Below, piece after piece: positions 442-18,401 of a stretch of DNA of 64,000 nt. The DNA comes from a virus. The notes beneath the pieces are model-generated. The model had not been told where the DNA came from, made no database searches, and saw only the letters and a program-made list of their open reading frames with translations. Where the stretch lies: the IMG/VR virus record IMGVR_UViG_3300042549_007727; one strand, 5' to 3'. Each line of letters begins with the position of its first letter. Position 1 is the stretch's first letter. The position numbers and the translations under genes were made by a program.

Positions 442-1503
442 ATGTATCAACAAAAAGTAATAGCAGAACACACAGCACCAGACCTAGCAGGAATCAACTA
501 TGACCAACTGTTAGAACAACTTGTCGGGGCAGTAAGGGGTTCAAGTTTCGGAGTGACAACTTCAATTCTTGACGAACACCTAACACCAGCAGGTAGAGCA
601 ACACTACGCACTAAAGGTAAAGCAGGTTCAACACTTTCAACTCCAGCTAAACTAGATGAAGCAGAGCCAGCGAAGCTAGAGGAAGTTATGGAATCAGTTG
701 CGAACTTAGAGGGAGAGGAATCTTACTCACGACCTAATGGCGACCTTTACTATGGTCGCAAGTGGGGCGACAATGTAGATGTTGAAGTTCTACGCAAAGC
801 CAGAGAAGCAGGACAGTATGTAATGCTCTATGGAGTTCCTGGAACTGGAAAGACAGCGTGCGTTGAAGCTGCTTTTCCAGATGAACTTTACACAGTTCTT
901 GGTTCTGGCGACACCGAAGTTTCTGACTTGGTAGGTGGCTATGTCCAAACTCCAAGTGGCGGTTTTGAGTGGGTGGACGGAAGTTTAGTAAAAGCAGCTT
1001 CCGAGGGTAAAGTTCTACTGATTGACGAAATTGGTTTGATTGACCCGAAAGTTCTTTCGGTTGTCTATGGACTAATGGACGGCAGAAAAGAAATTACAAT
1101 CACACAGAATCCAGAGCGAGGCACAGTAAAAGCTAAGGAAGGATTTTTTGTAGTTTCGGCAACTAACCCTAATGTCGCAGGAGTTCGTTTGTCAGAGGCA
1201 CTTCTATCTCGTTTCGCTATTCAGGTTGAAATGACTACTGATTGGAACTTGGCTAGGAAACTTGGAGTTCCGCAGAGTGCGGTTGTTGCTTCACAGAATC
1301 TAGCAAAGAAACTAGAAAATGGTGAAACTTCTTGGTCGCCACAAATGCGAGAGTTGCTTGCGTTCCGTGACTTGTCCAAAATGTTTGGAACAAAGTGGGC
1401 AGTCCAAAACTTGCTTGCTTCCGCACCAGAGATTGACAGACCAATCGCTAGTGATGTATTCACCAGAGTATTCGGAGAGGCAATCCTGCCAGCAAAGATT
1501 TAG
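442..1503 (+). CDS. MoxR/CbbQ/NorQ-type AAA+ ATPase
   Basis: Walker A GVPGTGKT, Walker B LLIDE, ATNP sensor, LSEALLSRF Arg finger; followed by vWA gene. Confidence 0.9.
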   Translation: MYQQKVIAEHTAPDLAGINYDQLLEQLVGAVRGSSFGVTTSILDEHLTPAGRATLRTKGKAGSTLSTPAKLDEAEPAKLEEVMESVANLEGEESYSRPNGDLYYGRKWGDNVDVEVLRKAREAGQYVMLYGVPGTGKTACVEAAFPDELYTVLGSGDTEVSDLVGGYVQTPSGGFEWVDGSLVKAASEGKVLLIDEIGLIDPKVLSVVYGLMDGRKEITITQNPERGTVKAKEGFFVVSATNPNVAGVRLSEALLSRFAIQVEMTTDWNLARKLGVPQSAVVASQNLAKKLENGETSWSPQMRELLAFRDLSKMFGTKWAVQNLLASAPEIDRPIASDVFTRVFGEAILPAKI

Positions 1504-1561
1504 TGAGTGGGTTGTGTCCTCACTAAAGGGTGGGGAAACGCAAGGTTTTTTCTTGTTTGAT

Positions 1562-1590
1562 TTGACTTGCGTTTCTCCCCCAACTACTAT
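1562..1590 (+). promoter_or_regulatory. sigma70/SigA-type promoter for vWA gene
   Basis: TTGACT-N17-TACTAT, overlapping the 3' arm of an inverted repeat (GGGGAAACGCAAG / CTTGCGTTTCTCCCC). Confidence 0.6.
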
Positions 1591-1634
1591 ACAATTTAGA
1601 CATAACAAAAAAACGCCAAATGAAAGGGAAGCAA

Positions 1635-3488
1635 ATGGCACACTACAAAGTAAAAGGTAAGTCAAGACTTACAACACGAACAACTACAACCAACCCAGAG
1701 TGGCTAAGAGTTTGTTCACAGATTGGTCGCTTGGTCAATGATTGGTCATGGCGTTCAGATTTAGTTGTCTATGGTGGAGAGGATTCTGCCGAGGGCAAAG
1801 CTATCGCTGCTTTTTATTCAGACATAGCAGAGATTGAAGTGAACTTGCCGAAAGCGTTTGGAGAACTTACGCCAGCAGATTTTGTCGGCGACTTGACTAA
1901 AAAAGAAACGCAGTATGAGTATCCAATGGTGACAGGCGTTCTGTATCACGAAGCACTACACGCACGCCACACGAATTGGGACACTTCAATTTTGTCAGAG
2001 GCACTAGACCCTAATGAGCAAAGAGCTTTTATGTTGCTAGAGGAATCACGAATTGAAGCAAAGGGAATCAAAGAGCGACCAGAGCTTAGAAACTTCTTGC
2101 GTGCTTCTGCTTTAGACATGGCACTAGACGAAGTGACTACAGACACACTCGCAGGTTTGGCTAGTGATGTTTGGAATACAGCACGCCTAGCAGGACTTTC
2201 AGTTTCAAGAGTGGATTCAGGAGTTCTTGAAGTTTCTGACATTACTGACATTTACAGAGAAGTAGTTTCAGTTCTTGGTCAGGACTTGTTTGACGAACTA
2301 AGAAAAGTTTGGATTGAGTTTCAGGCACTAGGCGTTCCACAGATTGAGCGAGCTATTGAACTTGCTAAGAAGTGGGTTGAACTATTGCGTGAATCAGACC
2401 CAGAGGGCGAGCCAGATTCAGGTTCGGCAGGTGACATTTTCGGCGAGCCAGATGAATCAGAGGGCGACAGCGAGGGTGGAAGCGGAAGTGAACTGTCTGA
2501 CACCATGAAAGACATGATTGAAAAACTTTCCGAATCTGCTAGTCACTCGGAGATAGAAGCGAGAGAGGCACTTGCCCAACAAGAGCAACAAGACAAGTGG
2601 GGCGAGGAATCAAAAGCAAGGCAAGAGCAAGCAAAGAATAACAACCAACGCAAAAACATAGCCAAGCAAATCTTTCACAAGCCACACTCCCAAGAGGGTT
2701 CGGGTTCTAACTCGTCTGTATCCTCTCGCAGACAGCCGACAGGGACAGAGCGAGCAAGTGCGGTAGAGATTGCTAAGTCATTAGACAAGGCAAAGTATCG
2801 TGAGCGTTCGGTTCATGTTCGCAAAAGTCAGACACCACAGGGCAAGCTGATTATGAGAAACGCCGTCCAGAATAGGGCAGTTGAATCTATTGGCAAGCGT
2901 GGAGAGTTGCCAGCGTGGAAGTCAAAGACACGCAAGCACACAGACGACCCAACGCTAAGGCTTGGAATCATGGTGGACATTTCAGGTTCTATGGGTTCTG
3001 CTATGGAAGCTATGGGACAGACAGCGTGGATTATGTCCGAGGCAGGTCGCAGGATTCAAGCTGAAACGGCTATGGTGTATTACGGCTCTGGCGTGTTCCC
3101 AACTCTAAAGCGTGGACAGCGTTTGAGCGAGGTGACGATTTACACAGCACCAGACGGAACTGAAAAGTTTACCGAAGCGTTTGAAGCGATTGACGGCGAG
3201 CTTGGACTAACTTTTGGGGACGGCGTGCGTATGTTAGTTGTTGTGTCGGACGGAAACTACACAGGCACAGAACTACAGAGAGCAACCGAACTACTAAGAG
3301 AGTGTAAACAAAACGGCGTGGCGGTTCTTTGGATTACACCGAGAGGTTGTAATGGCATGGGGGCGAGGTCAATAATTTCTGGTTCGGCGTGGGGAGTTCA
3401 CTTGGACGACCTAGACACAACGGAGATTGCGAGGCAAGTCGGCAAGTCGGCAAGCGAAGCATTGGGTCGGGTGGGTTCACTCACCTAG
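1635..3488 (+). CDS. vWA-domain protein with N-terminal HExxH metallopeptidase-like motif (CobT-like partner of the AAA ATPase)
   Basis: HEALH motif, acidic linker, MIDAS DISGS, VVVSDG; RBS AAAGGGAAG before ATG 1635. Confidence 0.85.
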   Translation: MAHYKVKGKSRLTTRTTTTNPEWLRVCSQIGRLVNDWSWRSDLVVYGGEDSAEGKAIAAFYSDIAEIEVNLPKAFGELTPADFVGDLTKKETQYEYPMVTGVLYHEALHARHTNWDTSILSEALDPNEQRAFMLLEESRIEAKGIKERPELRNFLRASALDMALDEVTTDTLAGLASDVWNTARLAGLSVSRVDSGVLEVSDITDIYREVVSVLGQDLFDELRKVWIEFQALGVPQIERAIELAKKWVELLRESDPEGEPDSGSAGDIFGEPDESEGDSEGGSGSELSDTMKDMIEKLSESASHSEIEAREALAQQEQQDKWGEESKARQEQAKNNNQRKNIAKQIFHKPHSQEGSGSNSSVSSRRQPTGTERASAVEIAKSLDKAKYRERSVHVRKSQTPQGKLIMRNAVQNRAVESIGKRGELPAWKSKTRKHTDDPTLRLGIMVDISGSMGSAMEAMGQTAWIMSEAGRRIQAETAMVYYGSGVFPTLKRGQRLSEVTIYTAPDGTEKFTEAFEAIDGELGLTFGDGVRMLVVVSDGNYTGTELQRATELLRECKQNGVAVLWITPRGCNGMGARSIISGSAWGVHLDDLDTTEIARQVGKSASEALGRVGSLT

Positions 3489-3519
3489 ACCTAAACGGAG
3501 TGCTTGCCCAGCGGTTGAG

Positions 3520-3700
3520 CGAAAGTCAGGACTTCCCCCCTTTGACCTGATAATAGTTCCCAACGGACAAGACACTAGAAACCCCTATCAAGTGCTTCCC
3601 CCAAGTCTTGGTAGGGGTTTCGCCTTTCTCGGTTTGACGGACGAGATTGGGTGGAATCTGAATCCCTGGCACAGACTTTTTACGAAAGATGAAAAGTCAC
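3520..3700 (+). ncRNA. candidate structured 3'UTR/small RNA with C-rich loops
   Basis: Hairpins 3525-3550 (loop ACTTCCCCCC), 3578-3621 (15-bp stem, loop with CTTCCCCC), 3674-3698. Confidence 0.35.
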
Positions 3701-3723
3701 CAGCAGAAAAAGCTGACGAAGGC

Positions 3724-3794
3724 GTATCCACTTTTTATCTGGCTAAAAACTTTTTTGACAAAACACTTGCTTTTTCTGTAAACCCTGTTAGGAT
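3724..3794 (+). promoter_or_regulatory. 13-mer motif + promoter, unit 1
   Basis: GTATCCACTTTTT 3724; TGnTAGGAT -10 at 3789. Confidence 0.7.
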
Positions 3795-3844
3795 TGGAAC
3801 TATCCAATCGGAACGAAACAGAAGTAGTTCCAGAGGGGGGATTT

Positions 3845-4195
3845 ATGGCTAAGGTCATTTCCCGAACAGCCCCAGAGGTTGCGAAAGCAACTCCAAAGGT
3901 TGTCAAAGTTTCACGAAAAGTCGTGGAACTAATCAGCGAACTTTCCGAAGTTCGTGCTACATACAACTCGGCGAAAGCCAGAGTTGAGGAACTTCGTGAC
4001 GAAGTTCTTTCCCAAGTTGGGCGTTCCAATTTGACCCTTGTCCACAACAGCATTGAGGTCGCTCGTATCGTTGAGAGTTCTCCTGTGCGTGTAGATGAGG
4101 AGTTCTTGAAAGAGAACTATCCAGAGGCTTACCAAGCTTCTCTAAGGGCAAAGCCCCAACACACGATTCGCTCTGTCACACGCAAAGCGAACTAA
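3845..4195 (+). CDS. small coiled-coil phage protein, paralog of 11591..11932
   Basis: G-rich RBS; shares LxHNxIExARI and D..L....PEA[YF] with 11591 ORF. Confidence 0.8.
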   Translation: MAKVISRTAPEVAKATPKVVKVSRKVVELISELSEVRATYNSAKARVEELRDEVLSQVGRSNLTLVHNSIEVARIVESSPVRVDEEFLKENYPEAYQASLRAKPQHTIRSVTRKAN

Positions 4196-4205
4196 AGAAC
4201 TGGGC

Positions 4206-4242
4206 GGGCAGGGCGAAAGCCCTGTCCCCCATTTCATTTTTT
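4206..4242 (+). terminator. intrinsic terminator
   Basis: GGGCAGGGC-GAAA-GCCCTGTCC + T-rich tail. Confidence 0.75.
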
Positions 4243-4257
4243 ATTTGACCTGACAAT

Positions 4258-4328
4258 GTATCCACTTTTTACCAAAGGAAATGGACACGGAAAAAAGATA
4301 CCGAAAATGTCAGGGACTATGCTAAGAT
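4258..4328 (+). promoter_or_regulatory. 13-mer motif + promoter, unit 2
   Basis: Motif 4258; TGCTAAGAT extended -10 (hexamer at 4323). Confidence 0.7.
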
Positions 4329-4357
4329 TGGAACTACCACAAAGAAAGGGGAACACC

Positions 4358-4708
4358 ATGAGAGGCGAGCCATTAGAGCTTGACGAAGTTGCTGGATTAT
4401 CTCTAACAGTATTGGGCGTGCTTGTTGAGGCATACATCAAAGAGGGATACAGCGACCCGACAATGTATAGAGCAATACGGGCTTCAACCGAACTGGCTAA
4501 AAACTTCAAGGCACGGCTAGAACTAGACGGACGGGACACGGACGGCGTGGACGACTTGATTACTAACCTAGAGCTAACGGCTATGGAATCTGGCGAGGTA
4601 GTAAACCGAATCATAGAGCAGAACGGCTGGCAAGAAACGGCTGGCGAGTGGAGTAGCCCTGCTAGTATGACTTGTGATAACGACTGCGAACATGACGGCA
4701 AGGAGTAG
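4358..4708 (+). CDS. hypothetical protein
   Basis: RBS AAAGGGGAA before ATG 4358. Confidence 0.7.
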   Translation: MRGEPLELDEVAGLSLTVLGVLVEAYIKEGYSDPTMYRAIRASTELAKNFKARLELDGRDTDGVDDLITNLELTAMESGEVVNRIIEQNGWQETAGEWSSPASMTCDNDCEHDGKE

Positions 4709-4715
4709 GGACGGC

Positions 4716-5015
4716 ATGGACTTTCAGACTGCGTTCGGCGAGGTTGTGCGTGAGCAACGGCGTGCTAATGAGATTACAATGCGAAGCGTGACGGATAGGG
4801 GACACCTAGCGTTGGGATACCTGTCCGAAGTGGAACGGGGACACAAAATGCCCTCTAGCCTAATAATTGCGTCCATAGCAGACGGACTGGGTATAGACGC
4901 AAGCGAGCTGATTATTCAGACGGGTATGCGTATGTCCAATGTTCCTGAAAGCCCTGAAAGCCTGTTCAAGCTAAGGGACAGAGATTGGGCTAATCAGTAT
5001 TCAGATTTGAGATAG
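4716..5015 (+). CDS. XRE-family HTH regulator, ClgR-like
   Basis: GEVVREQR...LALGYLSEVERGHKMPSS resembles the actinobacterial ClgR signature SLGYLSEVERGxKExSS. Confidence 0.8.
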   Translation: MDFQTAFGEVVREQRRANEITMRSVTDRGHLALGYLSEVERGHKMPSSLIIASIADGLGIDASELIIQTGMRMSNVPESPESLFKLRDRDWANQYSDLR

Positions 5016-5020
5016 AGAAA

Positions 5021-5052
5021 GCCCCCCTGACAAAAGTTAGGGGGATTTTTTC
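5021..5052 (+). terminator. intrinsic terminator
   Basis: CCCCCCTGAC-AAAA-GTTAGGGGGA + T tract. Confidence 0.75.
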
Positions 5053-5064
5053 TTGGCTGGTAGT

Positions 5065-5123
5065 GTATCCACTTTTTGCTGAACATTTTTTGTTTGGTTT
5101 TTGTCGGGGGTAGGGTATAGGAT
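5065..5123 (+). promoter_or_regulatory. 13-mer motif + promoter, unit 3
   Basis: Motif 5065; TTGTCGG element; TAGGAT at 5118. Confidence 0.65.
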
Positions 5124-5162
5124 TTGATTGTTATAAAAACTCCAACAGGAAAGTAGGGGAAA

Positions 5163-5399
5163 TTGAGTTATTATCCAGAGGGTTCTATGGCTGGTTCTGG
5201 CATAGATTCCGTAGAAGTTCCGTATGACGAGTTTGTCTGCGAAGCTGACGATTGTGGCAAGGTGAACGAAGCTAGTGAAGCTATGACAGACGACTATGGC
5301 AATTACGAAGTTGAGTGCCAGTTCTGCGGTAGCTTTTACTTTAGAAGTTCTATTGCCGAGGACAAGGCAGATTGGGCAGCGAATAATTATGATTACTAA
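5163..5399 (+). CDS. small acidic Zn-ribbon protein
   Basis: TTG start after AGGGGA; CEADDC and CQFC. Confidence 0.7.
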   Translation: MSYYPEGSMAGSGIDSVEVPYDEFVCEADDCGKVNEASEAMTDDYGNYEVECQFCGSFYFRSSIAEDKADWAANNYDY

Positions 5400-5556
5400 T
5401 CCAAAACAGGGGACACCAATAAAAAACAGCAAGGGCGAATTACGATACGAATACACTTGCCCGAAGTGTTTTGACGAATACAGGGTGGACGAAAAGACAC
5501 ACGCTTGGATTCAGACCTTAGACAGACTGCCTAAGTGTTCGCCTTGCTACTTGTAG
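5389..5556 (+). CDS. small Zn-finger protein
   Basis: CPKC...CSPC; ATG overlaps end of upstream gene. Confidence 0.6.
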   Translation: MITNPKQGTPIKNSKGELRYEYTCPKCFDEYRVDEKTHAWIQTLDRLPKCSPCYL

Positions 5557-5627
5557 CCTAAAAAGTTTCCCCCGAATAATCAGGAACAGCGATTCCGATT
5601 CGGGGGATTTTTTTATGCCGTCAATGT

Positions 5628-5697
5628 GTATCCACTTTTGCTGCGGCAGGGTAAAACTTTTTATGTGCGGTGAAAAGTCGTAGGTAGGTGATAGTAT
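5628..5697 (+). promoter_or_regulatory. motif variant + promoter, unit 4
   Basis: GTATCCACTTTTG 5628, after hairpin 5568-5613; TGATAGTAT -10 at 5692. Confidence 0.65.
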
Positions 5698-5739
5698 TCA
5701 AGTATCAAGCAACACTAACCACGAACAAAGGGGAACAAG

Positions 5740-6051
5740 TTGAAAAGATTGCCTAACTACAAGATTGGCGCGGAGATTAGTGCGCTAAACACTTTCACGA
5801 ACTACAATGGCACAATTAGCGCCGTTCGGGACGAGAATAATTACAGGATTACACACTGGAACACTGTAATTCTTGATTACAACACTGACACCAACGAGAT
5901 TATTTCGCTACAAGATAGCTACATTAGCCAGACAACCAGCGCGCTAGTTGGGCGAATCTTGAGGGCGTTGCCATACGCTTCGGTTGAAAGATACTTGGGC
6001 TACATGACGCCGTCAAAAGATAAGCGCCGTTTGGTCGGTATGCTTCGATAA
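5740..6051 (+). CDS. hypothetical protein
   Basis: TTG start after AAAGGGGAA; followed by terminator CCCCGC-TTCG-GCGGGG. Confidence 0.75.
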   Translation: MKRLPNYKIGAEISALNTFTNYNGTISAVRDENNYRITHWNTVILDYNTDTNEIISLQDSYISQTTSALVGRILRALPYASVERYLGYMTPSKDKRRLVGMLR

Positions 6052-6121
6052 AAAGCCAAAAAGTTAGCCCCGCTTCGGCGGGGTTTTCTTTTTCCGTGAA
6101 AAGTTGCGCCGGTCGCGGCGT

Positions 6122-6170
6122 GTATCCACTTTTTGATGAAAGCTTTTTGCGGATCCTTGATCTGTATAAT
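6122..6170 (+). promoter_or_regulatory. 13-mer motif + promoter, unit 5
   Basis: Motif 6122; TATAAT at 6165. Confidence 0.7.
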
Positions 6171-6192
6171 TGTTGATGAAGGGGGAACACCA

Positions 6193-6507
6193 TTGAATAA
6201 TTTCTCAGAGCGAATCATTGCCAATACCGAAGATGGACGCCGTGAAGTGCGCGTCCTGCGTCTTGCGGTAAGTCTTGGCGACGACTTGGCATACATTGAT
6301 TGGGAGCCAAGCGGGGAGCTTTACTTTATCAAAGTCCCCGTCGAGTATCGCCGTCAAGGAATCGCTACAAAGCTATGGCAGGACGCTCAGGAACACGCGA
6401 GAAGCTTGAACTTGCCCGCGCTAACCCATAGCGAATACAGAACTGACGCGGGCGATTCTTGGGCTAAGTCCCTAGGCGAAAAACTTCCACCAAGAATCCG
6501 CGCTTAG
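6193..6507 (+). CDS. GNAT-family acetyltransferase-like protein
   Basis: Acetyl-CoA-binding motif A: VPVEYRRQGIATKL; TTG start after GGGGGAA. Confidence 0.7.
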   Translation: MNNFSERIIANTEDGRREVRVLRLAVSLGDDLAYIDWEPSGELYFIKVPVEYRRQGIATKLWQDAQEHARSLNLPALTHSEYRTDAGDSWAKSLGEKLPPRIRA

Positions 6508-6523
6508 TTTTTTGTAGCCAGGT

Positions 6524-6594
6524 GTATCCACTTTTTGACGAGGCGACACGCTTGCTTGCGGGTTCTTGCTTTTGTCGGTGGGTTGGGGTAAAGT
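6524..6594 (+). promoter_or_regulatory. 13-mer motif + promoter, unit 6
   Basis: Motif 6524; TTTGTCGG; TAAAGT at 6589. Confidence 0.65.
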
Positions 6595-6626
6595 CAAACT
6601 AACCAAGCAAGAGGGAAGGAAACAAA

Positions 6627-6842
6627 ATGATTGGTAGAAACAAAGATGCGGAAACAGCTTTTGATATGGCAATGAAGTTGCTGAACAACCCAAGTGAGGA
6701 AGTTCAACAGCAAGTCTGGGACAAGTGCCACGCTGACGAAGTAATCCAAAGGTCGGTAAGGCTTTACCTTTACAGCGAGCCAAGCTACACACCAAAGGCT
6801 CTATACAACCTTCACCAAAAACTCGCCGAGTTGGTGTCCTAA
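6627..6842 (+). CDS. hypothetical protein
   Basis: RBS GAGGGAAGGA, ATG. Confidence 0.7.
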   Translation: MIGRNKDAETAFDMAMKLLNNPSEEVQQQVWDKCHADEVIQRSVRLYLYSEPSYTPKALYNLHQKLAELVS

Positions 6843-6991
6843 TGGTTGTTCGCCCGCTGGAGAATACAGTTTGCTATCAATGCCCTAAGAAGATTATGGC
6901 AATGGTTGGTGCGGTTCACCCGCTATGCGTTGAGTGTCAAGAAAGTTTTGACGATTGGTTTGAACACGAGCTAGGAGTTTTCAATGGCTAA
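6842..6991 (+). CDS. 49-aa Zn-finger protein (below ORF-track cutoff)
   Basis: MVVRPLENTVCYQC...LCVECQ; TAATG coupling with upstream gene. Confidence 0.6.
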   Translation: MVVRPLENTVCYQCPKKIMAMVGAVHPLCVECQESFDDWFEHELGVFNG

Positions 6992-7187
6992 GCAAGTTTA
7001 TTTTGTTGTTGCGGTGGACTTAGATGAGTGCGTGCCGTTTATAGATGATGACACCTTTACAGCAAGGTTCAGTTCGGCAGAGCAAGTTTGGGACACCGAA
7101 CTACAAGAGTGGCAAGAAGACCCTGACCAAGAGTTTTACGATAAAGCGTTGAAGATTTTGAACACCATACCTTTAGCGAAAGACTAG
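6984..7187 (+). CDS. hypothetical acidic protein
   Basis: RBS AGGAG, overlaps upstream gene. Confidence 0.7.
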   Translation: MAKQVYFVVAVDLDECVPFIDDDTFTARFSSAEQVWDTELQEWQEDPDQEFYDKALKILNTIPLAKD

Positions 7188-7190
7188 TCA

Positions 7191-7502
7191 ATGAAACACA
7201 AAAAGAGTAAAGTTCAAGGCAAGTCTAGGCACGCCGAGTATCTTCGCCGAGTAGATAACGCCGATAGAGTTGCGGTAATGCTAAGGGGCATAACTTTATT
7301 TTGCGCTTTTATTTTTGTAATGAGGATAGTCGCTGGCGTTGATTCAGTTTCAGAATACCTAATCCTTTATGCGGTTGTGTTTGTGGGCGGGGTTAGTGCT
7401 TCGCTTGCCGAATACTTTTTGTTTAGGGCTTACCAAAGTCGCTACTCAAAAAGTCGCCGACAAAGTTTTTGGGATTTGTTCAACACCGAACTTTCCAAAT
7501 AA
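7191..7502 (+). CDS. membrane protein (2 TM)
   Basis: Two hydrophobic segments, basic termini. Confidence 0.7.
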   Translation: MKHKKSKVQGKSRHAEYLRRVDNADRVAVMLRGITLFCAFIFVMRIVAGVDSVSEYLILYAVVFVGGVSASLAEYFLFRAYQSRYSKSRRQSFWDLFNTELSK

Positions 7503-7506
7503 AACT

Positions 7507-7544
7507 TCCCGCTAGGACTTCCCCCCTAGCGGGATTTTCTCTTT
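7507..7544 (+). terminator. intrinsic terminator with ACTTCCCC loop
   Basis: TCCCGCTAGG-ACTTCCCC-CCTAGCGGGA + T tract. Confidence 0.8.
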
Positions 7545-7552
7545 CCAGCTGC

Positions 7553-7612
7553 GTATCCACTTTTTGATAGAGATTTTTTTGTGTGCGTTTTGTCGGTGGA
7601 CTATGCTATGGT
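7553..7612 (+). promoter_or_regulatory. 13-mer motif + promoter, unit 7
   Basis: Motif 7553; TTTTGTCGG; TGCTATGGT -10 at 7607. Confidence 0.7.
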
Positions 7613-7640
7613 TGAAGTATCCAAACAAAGGGGAAGTAAA

Positions 7641-7832
7641 TTGAAGACAGATTCAAGAATAGCAATAGTTTCAGAGCTACCAAACTGCGACTTCTGCGGT
7701 GAACACGCTCGCTATGACGGAGCAACCAAACTTGGACCTTGGGCTTTTATGTGCCAGAAGGACTGGGTATCTCACGGAGTAGGGCTTGGGCTTGGCAAAG
7801 GTCAAGTTCTAATGAAGGAAGGAACTAAGTAA
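7641..7832 (+). CDS. small Cys-containing phage protein
   Basis: TTG start after AAAGGGGAAG; CDFC...YDG.T..GPWAFMC...GLGLGKGQ. Confidence 0.7.
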   Translation: MKTDSRIAIVSELPNCDFCGEHARYDGATKLGPWAFMCQKDWVSHGVGLGLGKGQVLMKEGTK

Positions 7833-8033
7833 ATGGCGACAACAGTTGGAGAGCTGATTGAACAGCTAAAGACGCTGGACCCCGACACAACAGTTGTGTT
7901 TCAGTATTTGACACACGAACACACCGACTTTTCAATTGACGATTTTGAGTCAAAAGCCGAGGCACTTGACTACACCAACTTCGCTGATGAAATGTCTATC
8001 ACGATGAACGAGTGGCTCGCCGAAATGGAGTAG
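7833..8033 (+). CDS. hypothetical protein
   Basis: TVGELIEQLKTLDPD N-terminus common in small phage proteins. Confidence 0.7.
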   Translation: MATTVGELIEQLKTLDPDTTVVFQYLTHEHTDFSIDDFESKAEALDYTNFADEMSITMNEWLAEME

Positions 8034-8102
8034 CCACGCGACACCAAAGATTCCCCCGCGACCCCCGCGGGGGTTTTCTTTTTTGCCGGAAGGTAGCCAG
8101 GT

Positions 8103-8176
8103 GTATCCACTTTTTGATTCGGCTGCCGAAAGGGTTTTGTAAAAGTATTTGCTTTTTTCTTTTTGTGTAGTAAGAT
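8103..8176 (+). promoter_or_regulatory. 13-mer motif + promoter, unit 8
   Basis: Hairpin 8053-8073 upstream; motif 8103; TTGCTT 8149 and TAAGAT 8171. Confidence 0.65.
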
Positions 8177-8204
8177 GAAACTCTAACGAAAGGGAGGTTC
8201 CTAA

Positions 8205-8597
8205 ATGGGAGCAAGAACAACTTGGAAAATAAAGACTAATGATTCGGGAGCTATTACTTGGCTTTACAGTCATTGGGGAGGCGACAGTAAGTTTGACACC
8301 ACTAAAGAGGCGTTGGACTTGGCTATGCCTCGCTGGGAGGATAGGACTTATGGAGCTAGGATTTTTATCAGTAGCGTAATTGGTAATTCTTGGAGTTCAC
8401 AGACAGGGTTTGGAATTACTTCAACCCTTGACACAGATTCCAACCCGTTTGAGGAAAGCTACACGCCTTACACAATTGACTTTGTGCGGAAAGTAGTGAT
8501 TCTTGAAGGTGTTCTCGGAGAGGACTGGGAGTTAGGCTTTGACGAGTTCACTAGACTAAACAGCGAAGCCGACTTGCTACTTCAAGGGACAAGGTAA
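8205..8597 (+). CDS. hypothetical protein
   Basis: RBS GGGAGG; LYSHWGG motif. Confidence 0.75.
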   Translation: MGARTTWKIKTNDSGAITWLYSHWGGDSKFDTTKEALDLAMPRWEDRTYGARIFISSVIGNSWSSQTGFGITSTLDTDSNPFEESYTPYTIDFVRKVVILEGVLGEDWELGFDEFTRLNSEADLLLQGTR

Positions 8598-8879
8598 ATG
8601 GGAAACTTACAAGCTCAAGAAATTGCGAGCAACACCGAAATTACACTTGAACAGCAACTAACTTGGCACTTACAAGGTAATCACTATCCACCGATTCCAG
8701 TTAGTATGGTTCAGCCTTGTGTTGAAGCAATTCAGGCTTATTGGGAAGATGAGCTAGACACGGAGATTCAGTTGCCCGAAGGTGTTTTGTATCGGGGGAA
8801 GGAAACAGCCCCCGCTAGAGAAATAATCATCAATCATCACTTAGACGCTTGGTGTCAAGATGACGAAGATGAGTTTTAG
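8598..8879 (+). CDS. hypothetical protein
   Basis: Abuts upstream gene; WHLQGNHYPP...HHLDAW. Confidence 0.75.
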   Translation: MGNLQAQEIASNTEITLEQQLTWHLQGNHYPPIPVSMVQPCVEAIQAYWEDELDTEIQLPEGVLYRGKETAPAREIIINHHLDAWCQDDEDEF

Positions 8880-8905
8880 GATTAGCCCCAACTAACCCCC
8901 CAAAT

Positions 8906-8949
8906 GCGGGCAATAGAGAGATTCCCCCTTTCTATTGCCCGTTTTCTTT
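8906..8949 (+). terminator. intrinsic terminator with ATTCCCC loop
   Basis: 15-bp stem GCGGGCAATAGAGAG / CTTTCTATTGCCCGT + T tract. Confidence 0.8.
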
Positions 8950-8962
8950 GCGTGCCGGTAAG

Positions 8963-9033
8963 GTATCCACTTTTTACTGGGCTTGATTTTCTTTTTATGA
9001 AATACTTGTTTTTCTTTGTTAGTGTGTTATTGT
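8963..9033 (+). promoter_or_regulatory. 13-mer motif + promoter, unit 9
   Basis: Motif 8963; TGTTATTGT -10 at 9028. Confidence 0.65.
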
Positions 9034-9082
9034 TTATCTGTTGGGAAGTTCCCGACAAGAAACAAGAAAGTTGGGCAGAGAA

Positions 9083-9310
9083 GTGAAGTTTGTAATTAGG
9101 AGAGCAGTCTTAGGGTTGGTGGCTTTGCCAGTAATCGCTGGGACTTATGTTTTTATGTTTGTATTGCTAGGTTCGCTAAACAATACTTTATGGGGACTAA
9201 CCCTAGATGAAGTTTGGAATAACGGACTTTTGATTGGTTCGGTTAGTGCGGTTGCTTTCGCTTTCGCAACTCAGATTGACAAGCTAATTGCTAGATTGGT
9301 TGGTGAATAA
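9083..9310 (+). CDS. membrane protein (2 TM)
   Basis: GTG start; two hydrophobic segments. Confidence 0.65.
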   Translation: MKFVIRRAVLGLVALPVIAGTYVFMFVLLGSLNNTLWGLTLDEVWNNGLLIGSVSAVAFAFATQIDKLIARLVGE

Positions 9311-9444
9311 TGACTATCATTGTAATCAACCTAGACGGCTCAAGAACGCCTTACGGCTATTCGGCTCACTCATCAGACATCACCGATTACTATGACCGCC
9401 TAGTTGCGGAAAATAGAATCACCGCCTATGAGGTGATTTCCTAA
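9310..9444 (+). CDS. 44-aa hypothetical protein
   Basis: TAATG coupling at both ends. Confidence 0.55.
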   Translation: MTIIVINLDGSRTPYGYSAHSSDITDYYDRLVAENRITAYEVIS

Positions 9445-9590
9445 TGGGAGATTTTATTCTATTAGCGTTTGCTATCGGACTTATCTTTGGTGGCTTTACT
9501 CTTATGTTTTACAGTTTACTAACTGTAAAAAGAGATAACTACCGACCGAAGCATACACGCTCAACATACCTGCCCAACAGGAAAAGATAG
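9444..9590 (+). CDS. 48-aa single-TM protein
   Basis: MGDFILLAFAIGLIFGGFTLMFYSLL + basic tail; RBS GAGG. Confidence 0.55.
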   Translation: MGDFILLAFAIGLIFGGFTLMFYSLLTVKRDNYRPKHTRSTYLPNRKR

Positions 9591-9667
9591 TTCCCCCAAC
9601 TATCGGAAAGCCCTCGCCTTTGTGCGGGGGTTTTCTTTTTTCTGTTTTTTTTTTCTGACGAGAGCTG

Positions 9668-9728
9668 GTATCCACTTTTTGATGGAAGTTTTTTCGGCTT
9701 CCGTTTTGTCGGGCATTTATGCTAGTGT
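9668..9728 (+). promoter_or_regulatory. 13-mer motif + promoter, unit 10
   Basis: Motif 9668; TTTTGTCGG; TGCTAGTGT -10 at 9723. Confidence 0.7.
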
Positions 9729-9756
9729 TAGAGCTACCAATTAGAAAGGTTATCAA

Positions 9757-9924
9757 ATGGGAAAGTTAGTTGCAGAGCTAGGAACAAAAAAAGTCTTATC
9801 TCTAGTTGAAGGCGAAACAACAGTTTCGGCTTACTTACTCACGGAGAGTGAAGAGTTTCTTGCTGTCCTAAAGAGTGCCGACAGTCTAGAGCAGGTTCTA
9901 GATTGGGTAGAAGAAAACTACTAG
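9757..9924 (+). CDS. 55-aa hypothetical protein
   Basis: RBS GAAAGG; MGKLVAELGTKKVLSLVEGE... Confidence 0.6.
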   Translation: MGKLVAELGTKKVLSLVEGETTVSAYLLTESEEFLAVLKSADSLEQVLDWVEENY

Positions 9925-9935
9925 GAAGGTAGAAA

Positions 9936-10286
9936 ATGAAATTAGCTCTAAAGATAACGCCAGATGGCGTAGCAACTGAAATTGACATAGCCACGGACGA
10001 ATTGAAGAAACTACAAGACGCGGTTGATGGTCTAATTCAACCCGTTGATTTTGAGTTCGGCTCTAGGTATTTGACAATGTGGGTGAATGAAGAAGGACTA
10101 CTTAGAAACGATTTGGAAATGAATCCTGTCGCCTTTCTGTTTTACTCTTCACCGATAATGGGAAACATTATCATAACTGGCGCGCCAGATGAAGATGGCG
10201 AAACAACAAGCCTAGACAGCGCGACAGAGTTAGATGTTCTAAAAAGGATTTGTGAAAAGTTCCTAAGTTCTGTTGAACAAGTCTAA
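9936..10286 (+). CDS. DUF3846-like protein
   Basis: LQDAVDGLIQPV...MWVNEEGL...N..A...GNIIITG pattern. Confidence 0.65.
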   Translation: MKLALKITPDGVATEIDIATDELKKLQDAVDGLIQPVDFEFGSRYLTMWVNEEGLLRNDLEMNPVAFLFYSSPIMGNIIITGAPDEDGETTSLDSATELDVLKRICEKFLSSVEQV

Positions 10287-10359
10287 ATAAAAAACTAAAG
10301 CAACCCCGCCTTTGCGCGGGGTTTCTTTTTATCTTCCGTAAAAAGTCTGCCGTCAACTG

Positions 10360-10421
10360 GTATCCACTTTTTGATGCCTCTCTTAGTTGCGGTTGCTTTT
10401 TTCTTGCGTTTGTGTTATCTT
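10360..10421 (+). promoter_or_regulatory. 13-mer motif + promoter, unit 11
   Basis: Hairpin ~10303-10330; motif 10360; TGTTATCTT -10 at 10416. Confidence 0.65.
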
Positions 10422-10458
10422 GATTTGGCTTATAGCAACACTTAGTAGAAAGAGAAAA

Positions 10459-11397
10459 ATGAAAAGACAAATTAGTATCGCGCTCGCGGTGGCATTGCTT
10501 GCCGTTGGGACTACCCCCGCTAGCGCTGGAGTTCAAGGTGAAGTTAGTTCTTGGGGTCTAGATAGAGTAGACCAAACAGCGGGAACAGCAACACTAGATA
10601 GAAGCTACAAATACCCCGACAGCGCTGGCGCTGGAGTTCGCGTGTATGTTTTAGACACGGGAGTTCTTGGAACGCTACCTGGTTTCGGCGGGAGAGTTCT
10701 TACAGGGTTTGACACTCTCGCGGGACTTAGAACGCCACATCAGGCTAATCTTGACTGTAATGGTCATGGAACAGCCGTAGCTGGAATCATTGCTAGCGCG
10801 ACTTATGGAGTAGCTAAGAGCGCAACCATTGTGCCAGTTCGCGTTGCGGACTGTAAAGGTGGAATAGTTCCTGCCAACATTGTCAAGGGAATTGACTGGA
10901 TAATCAAGAATCACCCGCGCGGTACCCCTGCCGTTGTGAATCTAAGTATCGCGGTTGGTAAGACTAAGTTGGTTGATGACGCGATTACAAAACTCTACGG
11001 GATTGGTATAGTTTCAGTAGTTTCCGCTGGTAATCAAAACATAGACGCTTGTCGTCTAAGCCCCGCGGGAGCAACATACGCCCTTACCGTTGGGTCTATA
11101 AACATGAACGACCAAAGAACAAATACTTCTAACTTTGGCGAGTGTGTTTCTATGTACGCCCCTGGTGGTTTGATTACTACCGAGGGAACAAATGGTTTGC
11201 CCTCAACAAGAAGCGGAACATCTTTTTCCGCGCCTCATGTTGCTGGAGCAATAGCCTTGTATCTTTCAAGCAACCCTAAGGCAGACGCCCCCGCGACTGT
11301 TTGGGAGATTACAAGAAATGGTTTGAGTGGAGCTGTTGCTGACGCTAAGAGCGTTAGAGGCAATGTTCTACTCAACACCGCCTTTCTAAACAAGTAA
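10459..11397 (+). CDS. secreted subtilisin-like S8 serine protease (proteinase K/aqualysin-like)
   Basis: Signal peptide ending ASA; WGLDRVDQ; catalytic D (YVLDTG), H (GHGT), S (SGTSFSAPHVAG). Confidence 0.92.
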   Translation: MKRQISIALAVALLAVGTTPASAGVQGEVSSWGLDRVDQTAGTATLDRSYKYPDSAGAGVRVYVLDTGVLGTLPGFGGRVLTGFDTLAGLRTPHQANLDCNGHGTAVAGIIASATYGVAKSATIVPVRVADCKGGIVPANIVKGIDWIIKNHPRGTPAVVNLSIAVGKTKLVDDAITKLYGIGIVSVVSAGNQNIDACRLSPAGATYALTVGSINMNDQRTNTSNFGECVSMYAPGGLITTEGTNGLPSTRSGTSFSAPHVAGAIALYLSSNPKADAPATVWEITRNGLSGAVADAKSVRGNVLLNTAFLNK

Positions 11398-11456
11398 GCA
11401 ATAAGCAAAGACCCCCTGCCGTAATTGGCGGGGGGTTTTTTGCTAGCTGAAGGCGT

Positions 11457-11527
11457 GTATCCACTTTTTGACCTGTTGAAAAAACTTTTGCGGAATTGCT
11501 TGTTTTATCGGATTAGTATGCTATGAT
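11457..11527 (+). promoter_or_regulatory. 13-mer motif + promoter, unit 12
   Basis: Terminator ~11411-11441; motif 11457; TGCTATGAT -10 at 11522. Confidence 0.7.
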
Positions 11528-11590
11528 GATTACATCATCAAAAGATGATAATCCAAGCAACAAAAGCAACACCTAACAAAGGGGAATAAG

Positions 11591-11932
11591 TTGACAACAT
11601 CAACAACAACCGCAACAACAACCGCAACCAAGGCAACAAAAGTTGTTCTAGGACAAGTTCGGGAATTGACTGAGGTTAGGGCAGAAATTGCCAGACTGGA
11701 AAAACTAAAGTTGGCTCTCACCGCTGAAATTGAAAAGGCTTTTGAGGTTGACAAAGAAGCAAAGACCTCACGCTTTTCAACCCTTACTCACAATGCCATA
11801 GAGTTCGCAAGAATTGACTGGAGAAGCCGTAAGGGTATTGACTCAGAGAAGTTAGCCCTAGAGTTTCCTGAAGCGTTTGAGGCTTGCCAGAAGCCAACTG
11901 TTTACTCAGTAATAGTTTCCTTGTTCAAGTAA
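11591..11932 (+). CDS. small coiled-coil phage protein, paralog of 3845..4195
   Basis: TTG start after AAAGGGGAA; LTHNAIEFARI...IDSEKLALEFPEAF. Confidence 0.8.
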   Translation: MTTSTTTATTTATKATKVVLGQVRELTEVRAEIARLEKLKLALTAEIEKAFEVDKEAKTSRFSTLTHNAIEFARIDWRSRKGIDSEKLALEFPEAFEACQKPTVYSVIVSLFK

Positions 11933-12007
11933 AAGGGAGAGAGAAGCCCCCGCCGAAAGGTTGGGGGCTTTTCTTTTGCCAAAAAGTTTTACGGCGACTC
12001 GCGGGCT

Positions 12008-12079
12008 GTATCCACTTTTTGATTAGTCTTCCAGGTGTATCACGGGCTTAGGCTTTTTGTCTGTGGCAAATAGTATGCT
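12008..12079 (+). promoter_or_regulatory. 13-mer motif + promoter, unit 13
   Basis: Terminator ~11945-11977; motif 12008; TAGTAT/TATGCT at 12071/12074. Confidence 0.6.
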
Positions 12080-12135
12080 AATGATTACTAGCCAATTGGT
12101 TAGTAGTTGGGCAACAATTATTAGTTTGGAGAATC

Positions 12136-12339
12136 ATGAACATTAGTTCAGATACAAGGTCAACGCAAGAGTTGACTGTTGCGCTTATGGCACTAAACAC
12201 TACAACCCTTATTCCAACTGGATACGGGGTATCTCAGGACTGTGCAACAGCTATTGAGTTCTTGAAGCAACGCTCAGAACAGATGGCTAATGTTGCTAAG
12301 GAAATTGAGAAGCTACTAGGGGGAGTTCACCGTGGCTAA
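12136..12339 (+). CDS. hypothetical protein
   Basis: RBS GGAG. Confidence 0.65.
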   Translation: MNISSDTRSTQELTVALMALNTTTLIPTGYGVSQDCATAIEFLKQRSEQMANVAKEIEKLLGGVHRG

Positions 12340-12571
12340 GTTTGTAATCACTAATGGCAGAGTTGGTAATGACAACGGTAATCAGCAATTTGTAGAACAC
12401 GCCTATTATCACCCTATGGGCAGGAAAGCCCTATTGAACAAGATTCAAGACCTAGCTAATAGAAGCGGATTAGAGTCTTGGGCAGAGCTATACACGGAAT
12501 GGAAAGATGAGAATAGGACTGGCAAAACACCGAATCGAATCTTCCCTAGAAAGCCGTATTCAACTTACTAA
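12332..12571 (+). CDS. hypothetical protein
   Basis: GTG start, RBS GGGGAG. Confidence 0.65.
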   Translation: MAKFVITNGRVGNDNGNQQFVEHAYYHPMGRKALLNKIQDLANRSGLESWAELYTEWKDENRTGKTPNRIFPRKPYSTY

Positions 12572-12592
12572 CTAGATACCTCAGTAAGTAAT

Positions 12593-12623
12593 GACCCCCT
12601 AGCTATACGGTTGGGGGGTCTTT
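12593..12623 (+). terminator. intrinsic terminator closing the early array
   Basis: GACCCCCTAGC-...-GTTGGGGGTC-TTT. Confidence 0.75.
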
Positions 12624-12719
12624 GCTATGCGGTATGCGGTTGAATAGTTTGGATTCATGAATGCTTGATCATGCGGATAGCAAAAACAATTATTGAATTA
12701 GTTTTTTGATAGATCAGGT

Positions 12720-13240
12720 TGACCCCCCCATGAAATAAGCCAAAAATAATTAGCGGGCGGGCGGGCATACCCCCCTCAGAAACTTATAGTTAGTAATAAA
12801 CTTACTTAGGTCTTTTCTAGTTCTTTCAGCTAGCCCTCATAGACGCCCCCCTGTAAGCCTCACTAGAAAGACACCCAACTTGGACAGCTAATGCTAGACG
12901 CCCCCTCAGAGTAGTAGTCATAGATTCTAAAGTCATGACCCCCTAAGAAAGACAACCTTGTCTTGTAAAGTTCTTAGTAATCTAGTATCCTTGACAATAG
13001 ATAGTAATTTTTATTTTTCTAGCTTGAAGCAAGGACTAATTTTTATAAAGAACAATTTTGTATGGCGTATTCAACAAGAATTGTTTTTGGAAGACCCCTT
13101 CACTTTTAGGAAACAATTTTGAAGTCCTTCAATTTCATACGGCTACCCTCTCACCCGTCAAAAGCAGTAGACGCTAAGGTACTAATTCTTCCGTTACGGA
13201 CACCCCCCTCTTTTTAAAAAACGCAATTACCCCCTGCCCC
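12720..13240 (+). repeat. non-coding region with repeated GAC(G)CCCCC / C-tract motifs
   Basis: C-tract motifs near 12721, 12769, 12842, 12897, 12937, 13093, 13199, 13229; no ORF. Confidence 0.6.
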
Positions 13241-13322
13241 AAAACGACAAAAAATCCGGAAAAAATTTTTCAAAAAAATTCGTCCAATAGCCCGATATCT
13301 ACATAGTGCTAAAATGTACCTT

Positions 13323-13832
13323 ATGCCCCGTAGAACAGCGCGAAGTCAGCCGCTACCCCCAGCCGAAGTTGAGTACCTAAACTCGCTTACAATAAACGCC
13401 CTTATCCCGAGAGTCAACGCACTGTATAACGCAGGGTGGGCGCTTCAAGCCATCGGGGAATGCCTATCCCCTAGACGCCCTAGATCCACGGTTCGCAGCT
13501 GGGTAGTTAAGTCTGCTGAGCTTGGGGCCCAAGAAGCAGTAGACGCCCCTACCCTCCCATCTCCTGTACATAAAACAGCAGCCGATGGGTATCAGAAACG
13601 CCGCCCTACATCTCCAGGTATCCCTGAGGACACTTTTGACGAGATTAGGTCCTTAGCGCCCCTAGCACGCTCCTACAGGGCCAAAATGGCCCAAACTAGC
13701 TCTGCGGCCGTAGCAAACCGCAGATTGACTGATATTTGCGCCAAATTGCACGAAAATGGCGTAGGAATAAGGGAATTAGCCGAGGCAGCAGGAGTAACAT
13801 ACCGCGCTATGTACAAGAGAATTAAGCTTTAA
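13323..13832 (+). CDS. double-HTH DNA-binding protein
   Basis: GWALQAIG and GVGIRELAEAAGVTYRAMYKRI; probable leaderless start 7 nt after TAAAAT. Confidence 0.7.
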   Translation: MPRRTARSQPLPPAEVEYLNSLTINALIPRVNALYNAGWALQAIGECLSPRRPRSTVRSWVVKSAELGAQEAVDAPTLPSPVHKTAADGYQKRRPTSPGIPEDTFDEIRSLAPLARSYRAKMAQTSSAAVANRRLTDICAKLHENGVGIRELAEAAGVTYRAMYKRIKL

Positions 13833-14051
13833 TCTCGATTTGACATCCTAAATCCGACACAATAGGGTTTTTGACGTGGTAAAATATTAACCGGAGAGCA
13901 CGTTCTTTCAATAAAAGGAAGGATGTGCTTTTTGGCATCTCTGGACATTTTGTGTTAGAGTGCAACCCACAACTGAATATGGAAAGAAAACCAAATAGAA
14001 CACTAAACGACCGAGTACTAAAGTATTCACTTCTGAAAGGTAGGTCGCTAA

Positions 14052-14804: not shown

Positions 14805-14815
14805 TTAGGACGAGA

Positions 14816-14846
14816 GGCCCCTCCTTCGGGAGGGGTTTTTCTCTTT
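14816..14846 (+). terminator. intrinsic terminator
   Basis: CCCCTCC-TTCG-GGAGGGG-TTTT. Confidence 0.85.
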
Positions 14847-14921
14847 AAATTTGACTTGACAAACAAAATCATATACATTAGTGTTTAGTCAAGCATCACC
14901 CAAATAGAGAAAAGAGACAAA

Positions 14922-15179
14922 ATGAAGAACATATACAAAAGCATTGTTATCGCAGTTGTTTTTGGAAACATTATTGCGTTCCCGGTAGTTGCCTACACAT
15001 TCCCGTGGGACACATACCTGATTGATCCAACCCCCTACTACATTATTCAGTCAGAGTCGCTAGGTTTTTTGATTGCGGCATGTATTTTTGTCTACGAATG
15101 GGTTAAGTACGGCGAGAAGCCAAACTTTCTTAAACTTAAGTTAAAGCCTCGTACGCCTAAGCAGAAAACTACAAAATAG
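14922..15179 (+). CDS. membrane protein (2 TM)
   Basis: Hydrophobic segments; TTGACA promoter upstream. Confidence 0.65.
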   Translation: MKNIYKSIVIAVVFGNIIAFPVVAYTFPWDTYLIDPTPYYIIQSESLGFLIAACIFVYEWVKYGEKPNFLKLKLKPRTPKQKTTK

Positions 15180-15221
15180 TCCTGCCTTGCGCATACGACT
15201 AGATTGTGATAGTATAAAGCC

Positions 15222-15563: not shown

Positions 15564-15567
15564 AATA

Positions 15568-16022: not shown

Positions 16023-16035
16023 GGTATTGACCACA

Positions 16036-16590: not shown

Positions 16591-16600
16591 GGAGCAACAA

Positions 16601-16969: not shown

Positions 16970-16988
16970 AGTAGGGTAAACTACCTAC

Positions 16989-18398: not shown

Positions 18399-18401
18399 AA
18401 T

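Follow-up and report, generated by a model that had tools for sequence, protein, structure and literature searches.

The small RNA (sRNA) 6C of Mycobacterium tuberculosis (B11/ncRv13660c) has C-rich loops that pair with G-rich ribosome sites, for example AGGGGGG of panD, without a chaperone (PMC6486639), and extra copies of 6C have been reported on plasmids (PMC9569102). Here we describe hairpins with C-rich loops that are encoded by a phage, in the 3' ends of predicted early transcripts on a stretch of 64,000 nucleotides (nt) from the IMG/VR virus record IMGVR_UViG_3300042549_007727, which we refer to as the window. Little is known of phage-encoded regulatory RNAs except from enterobacterial phages, and a literature search found no paper describing a 6C-like RNA in a phage. 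The RegB protein of phage T4 is an endoribonuclease that cuts GGAG, early genes being inactivated as a class and later ones spared. The c4 antisense RNA of phages P1 and P7 is processed from a longer transcript and has loops that pair over the ribosome site, with a single operon as target.

We define here a structured RNA that is supported by covariation (E1), a tandem element resembling 6C (E2) and a concrete set of candidate targets for them, ribosome sites of a distinct type that are confined to the same 13 kilobases (kb). A preliminary description of the window had pointed out C-rich loops complementary to the ribosome sites of the early genes. That observation is confirmed, and the loops are conserved; the interpretation given to it, RNA-level feedback on early translation, is partly supported, and on the comparative evidence we consider it plausible.

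Elements E1 and E2 and the single C-loop hairpins

E1 is a structured RNA of about 125 nt (window 3499-3621) that lies just 3' of a gene for a protein with a weak match to the VWA domain (the vWA protein) and consists of two hairpins (Table 1). Relatives were found by a search with the vWA protein (1635-3488), encoded just 5' of E1, which was used as query because the loops themselves then cannot bias the search. The search returned two IMG/VR loci and 31 metagenome loci of 63-78% identity, from lakes, salt marsh and ocean, and E1 and E2 are conserved in dozens of these uncultured phage genomes. In all 29 relatives that have sequence there, E1 is found directly after the vWA stop codon, in 22 distinct versions, and conservation 3' of the vWA gene stops right after the last E1 hairpin and its UUUCGCC.

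The window copy of E1 has a minimum free energy of -49.3 kcal/mol (z = -3.75), and the architecture is the same in the folds of all 22 distinct versions. The RNAalifold consensus has compensatory changes in 13 of 26 pairs, including pairs of helices P1 and P2. On the opposite strand many of the G-U pairs would turn into A-C mismatches, which means that it is the RNA of the + strand that folds; stem-loop II in particular has many compensatory pairs, and its G-U pairs are compatible with the + strand only. Helix P3, directly under loop I, was analysed by folding each sequence separately and aligning outward from the loop, because MAFFT set P3 and the outer part of P1 in three different registers. 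P3 has been replaced wholesale, with 14 distinct helices among 16 sequences and 4-6 canonical pair types per position. Above this changing helix the C run of loop I is six long in 13 of 21 versions, the loop type in the relatives being (U)UCCCCCCUUU, and the cost of opening loop I is 0.9 kcal/mol. The lineage of L137, L138 and L140 is the exception, with UUACCGUUUUU as loop I. The large loop of stem-loop II contains (G)CUU(U)CCCCC.

The loops might also be read as minus-strand ribosome sites, and this we rejected, as the reverse complement of E1 loop I has no start codon at the right distance, there is no convincing minus-strand gene in 0-59 kb and the G-U pairs fit the + strand only.

In the case of E2, the tandem C-loop hairpins are intact in 12 relatives, where they lie at the end of the homologue of the window operon 8205-8879. 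The two stems are unrelated, each loop conforms to the type UUAUCCCCCUUU or UUCCCCCCUU, and the terminator is the second of the two hairpins. The window copy retains that second hairpin and an open C6 run, its first hairpin having decayed. There are also single C-loop hairpins. The stem of the terminator at 7507 is shared with L117, in which the C runs are in a small extra hairpin just upstream and not in the terminator loop, and L118 has a matching hairpin with a C5 loop at the end of the operon corresponding to window 9586. It thus seems to be the display of C runs at these 3' ends, and not a single fixed fold, that is under selection. A G+C-rich hairpin followed directly by a U tract, as expected of an intrinsic terminator, is present at 7507-7534, 8053-8073, 8906-8942 and 9605-9636. 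E1 stem-loop II is followed by just an interrupted U tract, UUUCGCCUUUCUC, and E1 stem-loop I and the hairpin at 9586-9604 are not terminators.

The six C-rich loops listed in the preliminary description are all at the places given there (Table 1), and their C runs are predicted to be 67-100% unpaired. The 13-mer AGGACTTCCCCCC, which it had reported as identical at 3528 and 7514, is indeed so, the expected number being 0.08. Conservation of loops over covarying stems in related phages was a check that it had itself proposed, and is what we find.

The pattern is more than chance, given the conservation of loops over covarying stems and the asymmetry between C and G in loops. Downstream of the vWA gene, over 143 kb of sequence from 21 non-redundant relatives, there are 221 C runs of at least five, 91 of them in predicted hairpin loops, and 165 G runs, of which only 12 are in such loops, even though G outnumbers C in this sequence. 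Among 244 terminator-like hairpins, 31 have at least four C in the loop and one has at least four G.

Early ribosome sites and their complementarity to the loops

Window 3.7-12.1 kb is an array of 13 short cassettes, in which the order is a terminator, GTATCCACTTTTT, a promoter-like TTGTCGG...TATGCT, a ribosome site and 1-4 small genes. Ribosome sites of GGGG type precede 7 of 28 early open reading frames (ORFs) but only 2 of 53 late ORFs, both of the latter being spurious internal starts (Fisher p = 0.007), and the late structural genes use AAGGAG or GAGG. GGGGAA as such is not enriched in the window as a whole (24 found, 25 expected), and 16 of the 24 are within 1.5-13.5 kb. Among the early sites, AAAGGGGAA is exact at 4345, 5727, 7627 and 11578, with variants at 3833, 5154 and 6179, and the site near 1625, which the preliminary description also listed, has only GGG. 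The frequency of TTG starts also holds, with TTG after five of the seven GGGG-type sites. In the relatives the GGGG sites are mostly before ATG (95 ATG, 14 TTG, 12 GTG), so that the TTG preference is specific to the window phage.

In the relatives 121 of 330 ORFs of the cassette region have GGGG sites, compared with 30 of 169 upstream of the ATPase/vWA gene pair. One relative, which contains L117, is complete at 154 kb. All 11 forward copies of AAAGGGG in it are within 59.8-72.1 kb, and CCCCCCTT occurs four times within 64.3-73.2 kb, always on the gene strand. In this genome AAAGGGG and its complement are thus confined together to about 13 kb (59.8-73.2 kb) of the 154 kb.

The 3' end of actinobacterial 16S rRNA is ...CCUCCUUUCU-3'. 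The loop core CCCCC(C)UUUC (core CCCCCUUUC) is a copy of the tail CCUCCUUUC with one U changed to C, and this one change makes it a perfect Watson-Crick partner of (G)AAAGGGG(G), that is GAAAGGGGG, which the ribosome reads only by way of a G-U wobble. The loop core mismatches GGAGG. By duplex energies naked loop I binds more tightly than the 16S tail on all seven GGGG sites (for example -14.4 as against -8.3 kcal/mol). The best predicted naked partner is the site at 3833 (-22.7 kcal/mol), the only G6 site, and orthologues of the 3845 gene in several relatives also have G6.

Pairing was scored as duplex energy plus the energies of opening, in place of RNAcofold, because pairing of a loop with a leader lies outside the RNAcofold model. 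With opening energies included, loop I has a mean of -9.8 kcal/mol over the GGGG sites, as compared with -3.4 over the other early first genes and -1.7 over 24 late genes. For the other C loops the values are between -2.4 and -5.3 kcal/mol on GGGG sites and between +0.9 and +3.1 on late genes, and the loops of five ordinary terminators, used as controls, do not bind after the same correction. The complementarity also extends into the flanks. The reverse-complemented loops GAAAGGGGGGAACT, GAAAGGGGGGACAA and GGGGGAAGC share flanks with the recurrent sites gaaaGGGGaact, gaaaGGGGacaa and gaaaGGGGaagc, and the loop of the 7507 hairpin, ACUUCCCC, is, as previously reported, the exact complement of GGGGAAGU at 7630-7637. 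The complementarity to GGGG-type sites, on which the preliminary description was built, is real and selective for early genes.

The vWA gene itself provides a different kind of evidence. Its start region, GAAAGGGAAGCAA-AUG, is complementary to UGCUUCCC of E1 loop II (8-base-pair duplex, -14.7 kcal/mol), and across the relatives the number of A after the G run in the start region tracks the number of U before the C run in loop II (Table 1). In the tree of vWA proteins the AA/UU state is found in the window clade and independently in L117, which is nested among AAA/UUU phages (support 98/96). Cognate pairs average -13.2 kcal/mol and non-cognate pairs -10.9, and none of 20,000 permutations reaches the observed mean, a count that is inflated by relatedness; for this reason we take the evidence as two clean independent compensatory events together with partial ones. 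Covariation of loop II with the start region of its own mRNA argues for direct pairing. No clear covariation was seen between the flanks of E2 or loop I and the first genes of their operons.

Table 1. Positions and sequences of the C-loop elements, the ribosome sites and related features (window coordinates except where a relative is named)
Feature	Position	Strand	Sequence	Remarks
E1 stem-loop I	3499..3576	+	loop ACUUCCCCCCUUUGA (DNA ACTTCCCCCCTTTGA, 3531-3545)	long rod with helices P1, P1b, P2 and P3; fully open 15-nt apical loop
E1 stem-loop II	3578..3621	+	loop GUGCUUCCCCCAAGU (DNA GTGCTTCCCCCAAGT, 3592-3606)	15-base-pair terminator-like hairpin, then conserved UUUCGCC
Intrinsic terminator	7507..7534	+	loop ACUUCCCC (DNA ACTTCCCC, 7517-7524)	ends 6627-7502 operon
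Intrinsic terminator	8053..8073	+	loop ACCCC (8061-8065)	
E2	8883..8942	+	open C6 run (8896-8901); loop AUUCCCC (DNA ATTCCCC, 8921-8927)	degenerate first hairpin plus the open C6 run, then 15-base-pair terminator
Small hairpin	9586..9604	+	loop CCCCC (9593-9597)	directly before terminator 9605-9636
vWA start region	1620..1637	+	AUGAAAGGGAAGCAAAUG	proposed partner of E1 loop II
Ribosome site	3833..3841	+	GAGGGGGGA	ATG at 3845; first cassette gene after E1
Ribosome site	4345..4353	+	AAAGGGGAA	ATG at 4358
Ribosome site	5154..5161	+	UAGGGGAA	TTG at 5163
Ribosome site	5727..5735	+	AAAGGGGAA	TTG at 5740
Ribosome site	6179..6187	+	AAGGGGGAA	TTG at 6193; GNAT-like protein
Ribosome site	7627..7637	+	AAAGGGGAAGU	TTG at 7641; best accessibility-corrected partner of loop I, -13.7 kcal/mol
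Ribosome site	11578..11586	+	AAAGGGGAA	TTG at 11591
vWA start / loop II			GGGAAGC / GCUUCCC	six phages
vWA start / loop II			GGGAAAGC / (G)CUUUCCC (GCUUUCCC)	eight phages
vWA start / loop II			GGGAAAAC / GUUUUUCCC	L142; one extra U
Leader hairpin, L122	~12040-12075		AAGGG(GG) loop	
Leader hairpin, L129	~17795-17830		AAGGG(GG) loop	
Leader hairpin, L137	~17815-17850		AAGGG(GG) loop	
Leader hairpin, L118	16154-16203		AAGGG(GG) loop	

Several relatives have 5' leaders in which a hairpin with an AAGGG(GG) loop, such as CAGCC-AAGGG-GGUUG, lies just 5' of an AAAGGGG ribosome site, and these hairpins could be kissing partners of the C loops. At window 1527-1581, between the AAA+ ATPase and vWA genes, a hairpin has the opposite polarity: its 5' arm, GGGGAAACGCAAG, is G-rich and its 3' arm, CUUGCGUUUCUCCCC, C-rich. 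This hairpin overlaps a sigma-70-like promoter, TTGACT-17-TACTAT.

With regard to the source, the window encodes a large terminase, a major tail protein, a tape measure protein, a DNA polymerase and a helicase. Nearly all genes up to about 59.8 kb are on the + strand, with a few reverse-strand genes from there on. Identity of the terminase is 73% with Actinomycetia phage DSL-LC01 and about 64% with Microbacterium phages of about 190 kb, which makes the window part of an uncultured large actinophage, siphovirus-like and without a cultured close relative. DNA searches of the region against 50,697 phage records, in near and distant modes, gave no match, and scanning IMG/VR for GTATCCACTTTTTG, which gave no more than one match per contig, at chance level, was of no help in finding relatives. 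The elements were not found in the nearest named relatives, DSL-LC01 and Microbacterium phage A3Wally and its kin: the syntenic region of DSL-LC01 has neither C loops nor GGGG sites (GGGG sites 5%), and A3Wally has no C-loop element 3' of its vWA homologue. No cultured model carries the system of C loops and GGGG sites. The module that bears E1 (window 442-3488) comprises a MoxR-type AAA_5 ATPase and the vWA protein, of 617 amino acids, and is conserved and syntenic in DSL-LC01 and the Microbacterium phages; the DSL-LC01 annotation calls the product of the second gene a cobalamin biosynthesis protein.

The 13-mer that opens the cassettes varies by phage. It is GTATCCACTTTTT(T) in the window (3724-12020), L125, L130 and L136, and GTGTATTTATTTTTTGT in L117 (11 copies, 12013-19586). 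L118, L121, L122 and L129 share the core AGTTATTTTTTCT, the L118 form being ATAGTTATTTTTTCTG with at least 14 copies (L118 9527-19039). In all of these phages the motif is at an equal distance 5' of the pair of -35/-10-like boxes, which points to co-evolution of this site with a phage-specific factor. By Pfam the cassette proteins include a subtilase-family S8 peptidase (10459-11397, E = 2.6e-33), an HTH_3 protein (4716-5015), the small GNAT-like protein (6193-6507) and a DUF3846 protein (9936-10286); most of the others match no Pfam family. After the last cassette, window 12700-13400 is gene-poor and has many unpaired boxes, such as GACGCCCCC(C), ACACCCCCCTC and TTACCCCCTGCCCC, and the matching place in L117 (20700-21400) has repeated TAGACGCCCCTATT boxes. 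This stretch could be a replication or regulatory region.

Possible roles of the C loops

We put the chances at about even that the C-rich loops are anti-Shine-Dalgarno seeds that pair with the early ribosome sites, working like 6C or RsaE and mostly in trans. Some early transcripts would bear functional seeds in their 3' untranslated ends, on the conserved hairpins of E1 and E2 and on those at 7507, 8053 and 9586. The 3' ends, protected by their terminators, would accumulate and pair with GGGG start regions, mainly in trans but in cis or in trans for the vWA mRNA by way of loop II. Pairing would occlude the ribosome site and lower the translation or stability of the early gene class, and the late genes, with GGAG or GAGG sites, would be spared. 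Transcription and processing of the 3' ends, pairing in the cell and the direction of its effect are what we infer from the structure, conservation, covariation, complementarity and co-localisation described above.

Looping of 5' and 3' ends in cis was put forward in the preliminary description. It fits the vWA mRNA, which could fold back on itself, but not the cassettes, where those with C-loop ends mostly have no GGGG site and vice versa. The units with GGGG sites (first genes 3845, 4358, 5163, 5740, 6193 and 11591) have at their ends terminators whose loops are GAAA, AAAA, UUCG or the like, and in the units with C-loop ends (the vWA unit, 6627-7502, 8205-8879 and 9083-9590) the ribosome sites are GGG or weak. 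A GGGG site and a C-loop end occur together only in the 7641 unit. This distribution over different units argues for action in trans. A broader proposal, which we make tentatively and think somewhat more likely to fail than to hold, is that a widespread clade of aquatic actinophages has a private early Shine-Dalgarno dialect, (G)AAAGGGG, and complementary 3'-end RNA loops, which together would make an RNA-only, class-specific off-switch for early translation, with E1 loop II also autoregulating the MoxR/vWA module.

Several observations weigh against the pairing proposal. Complementarity of C runs to G runs is in part trivial, and only about a quarter of the terminators carry C displays. The match of flanks is uneven among relatives, L118 having GGGGGCAGA sites without a matching loop, and in L137 and L138, where C runs of at least five are gone from loop I and from other places, GGGG sites still make up 22-24%. 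The covariation of vWA start and loop II comprises two clean events and the L142 lineage, in which A4 meets U5 and the match is inexact. Energies from RNAcofold are modest, though that method cannot model loop-based pairing.

The C loops may instead serve the hairpins themselves, by tuning termination, protecting the 3' end from exonucleases or binding a protein (e.g. a C-binding factor of KH type), with no pairing to ribosome sites. All of the elements are at transcript 3' ends and most are terminators or adjoin one, L137 and L138 keep the hairpin without the C run of loop I, and for mycobacteria it has been suggested, in work cited in PMC6486639, that C-rich stem-loops are an alternative form of terminator. 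We nevertheless find such a role rather unlikely: most terminators of the same array have GNRA, UUCG or A-rich loops, the best conserved C loop, that of E1 stem-loop I, is not in a terminator, and the flank complementarity, the covariation with the vWA start and the confinement of the loops to the same region as AAAGGGG sites would all be left unexplained. It is far less likely still that the loops are a by-product of composition, with C runs from the C-rich 5' arms of terminators spilling into loops by chance. In nearly all terminators here the 5' arm is indeed CCCCC and the 3' arm GGGGG, and TTCCCC is also found inside stems at 5567 and 8051. This would hardly account for a loop that stays constant while the stems change completely in 22 versions, for a C-to-G asymmetry in loops of 91 to 12, or for the absence of the motif from the remainder of the complete 154-kb genome.

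Two further alternatives accept that the loops pair but differ in the partner. In one, the elements are phage mimics of the host 6C RNA, and the C loops hit host mRNAs with G-rich leaders (6C targets such as replication or secretion genes) for takeover, rather than phage genes. The E2 of L122 aligns full-length to the Rfam 6C model (39.3 bits, E = 1.8e-4 in a search of 96 nt) and the window copy scores 17.6 bits; also 6C is pleiotropic by way of its C loops and halts growth on overexpression (PMC6486639), and there are the extra copies on plasmids (PMC9569102). We hold mimicry to be unlikely, as no copy reaches the gathering score of 47 bits in the window or 147 kb of relatives and the 154-kb relative has no match at E <= 10, and as the loop flanks and the covariation of loop II match phage start regions, with the matching G-rich sites in the same 13 kb of the phage genome; it is also compatible with phage targets in addition. 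In the other, the C loop of a terminator that has been read through pairs in cis with the ribosome site of the next cassette, and translation is left to transcripts that start at the promoter of the cassette itself. The only G6 site, at 3833, comes next after E1, which has C6, and the loop at 7517 has its exact complement in the next cassette, 105 nt downstream. A GGGG-site cassette follows just two of the five C-loop ends, however, the next sites after 8053, 8942 and 9604 being AAAGGGAGG, a weak site and AGAAAGG, and five GGGG cassettes follow terminators without C loops, which makes such insulation very improbable.

Comparison with 6C and other regulatory RNAs

RNAIII and RsaE, with which the preliminary description compared the loops, are analogies only, and the nearest relative by host phylum and architecture is the actinobacterial 6C RNA. 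RsaE/RoxS and RNAIII of the Firmicutes also have unpaired C-rich loop motifs, UCCC, that are seeds against ribosome-binding sites, but they are stand-alone cellular sRNAs of another phylum with no sequence or model similarity to the phage elements, and in our Rfam scans they are absent even among weak, chance-level matches at E <= 10. With c4 there is the likeness that loops of a phage RNA are directed against the region of a ribosome site; c4 in contrast is enterobacterial with loops that are not C-rich, and the Rfam scan of the window gave no match to it.

The likeness to 6C (Rfam RF01066) lies in the actinobacterial setting, in hairpins that show about six C flanked by U and, in the case of E2, in two adjacent C-loop hairpins, which are present in the 12 relatives, the first being degenerate in the window. 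There are also clear differences. The E1 loops are about 60 nt apart, the first of them on a long rod-like stem. The phage elements are in 3' untranslated ends, several per genome, whereas 6C is a free-standing chromosomal gene with its own promoter, and their proposed targets are the phage's own early genes. They come directly after phage stop codons and before the promoter of the next cassette, and no promoter-like site was seen between stop codon and element. In Rfam scans of the window and nine relatives (147 kb) all families stayed below their gathering thresholds. The 6C model, with a threshold of 47 bits, gave the 17.6 bits of the window at 8892-8946 (E = 1.5) and its best score in L122, with no match in the E1 region at E <= 10 and none in the E2 of L130. 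By the family model the phage elements are thus not members of the 6C family. Pairing with G-rich sites, the mechanism of 6C, is predicted for them from energies, flank complementarity and covariation with the vWA start.

Phage T4 shares with the window phage early genes that have a Shine-Dalgarno dialect of their own and that are, or here would be, inactivated as a class; the agent is RegB in T4, and the one proposed here is pairing of RNA with GGGG sites, so that the off-switch, if it exists, would be an RNA counterpart of RegB. The results also suggest a rule for finding such RNAs in other phages, namely to look for loops whose complement is the dialect of the ribosome sites. If the pairing is real, a phage can time a whole class of genes purely by RNA, and the actinobacterial mechanism of 6C, a C loop against a G-rich site, would extend to viruses.

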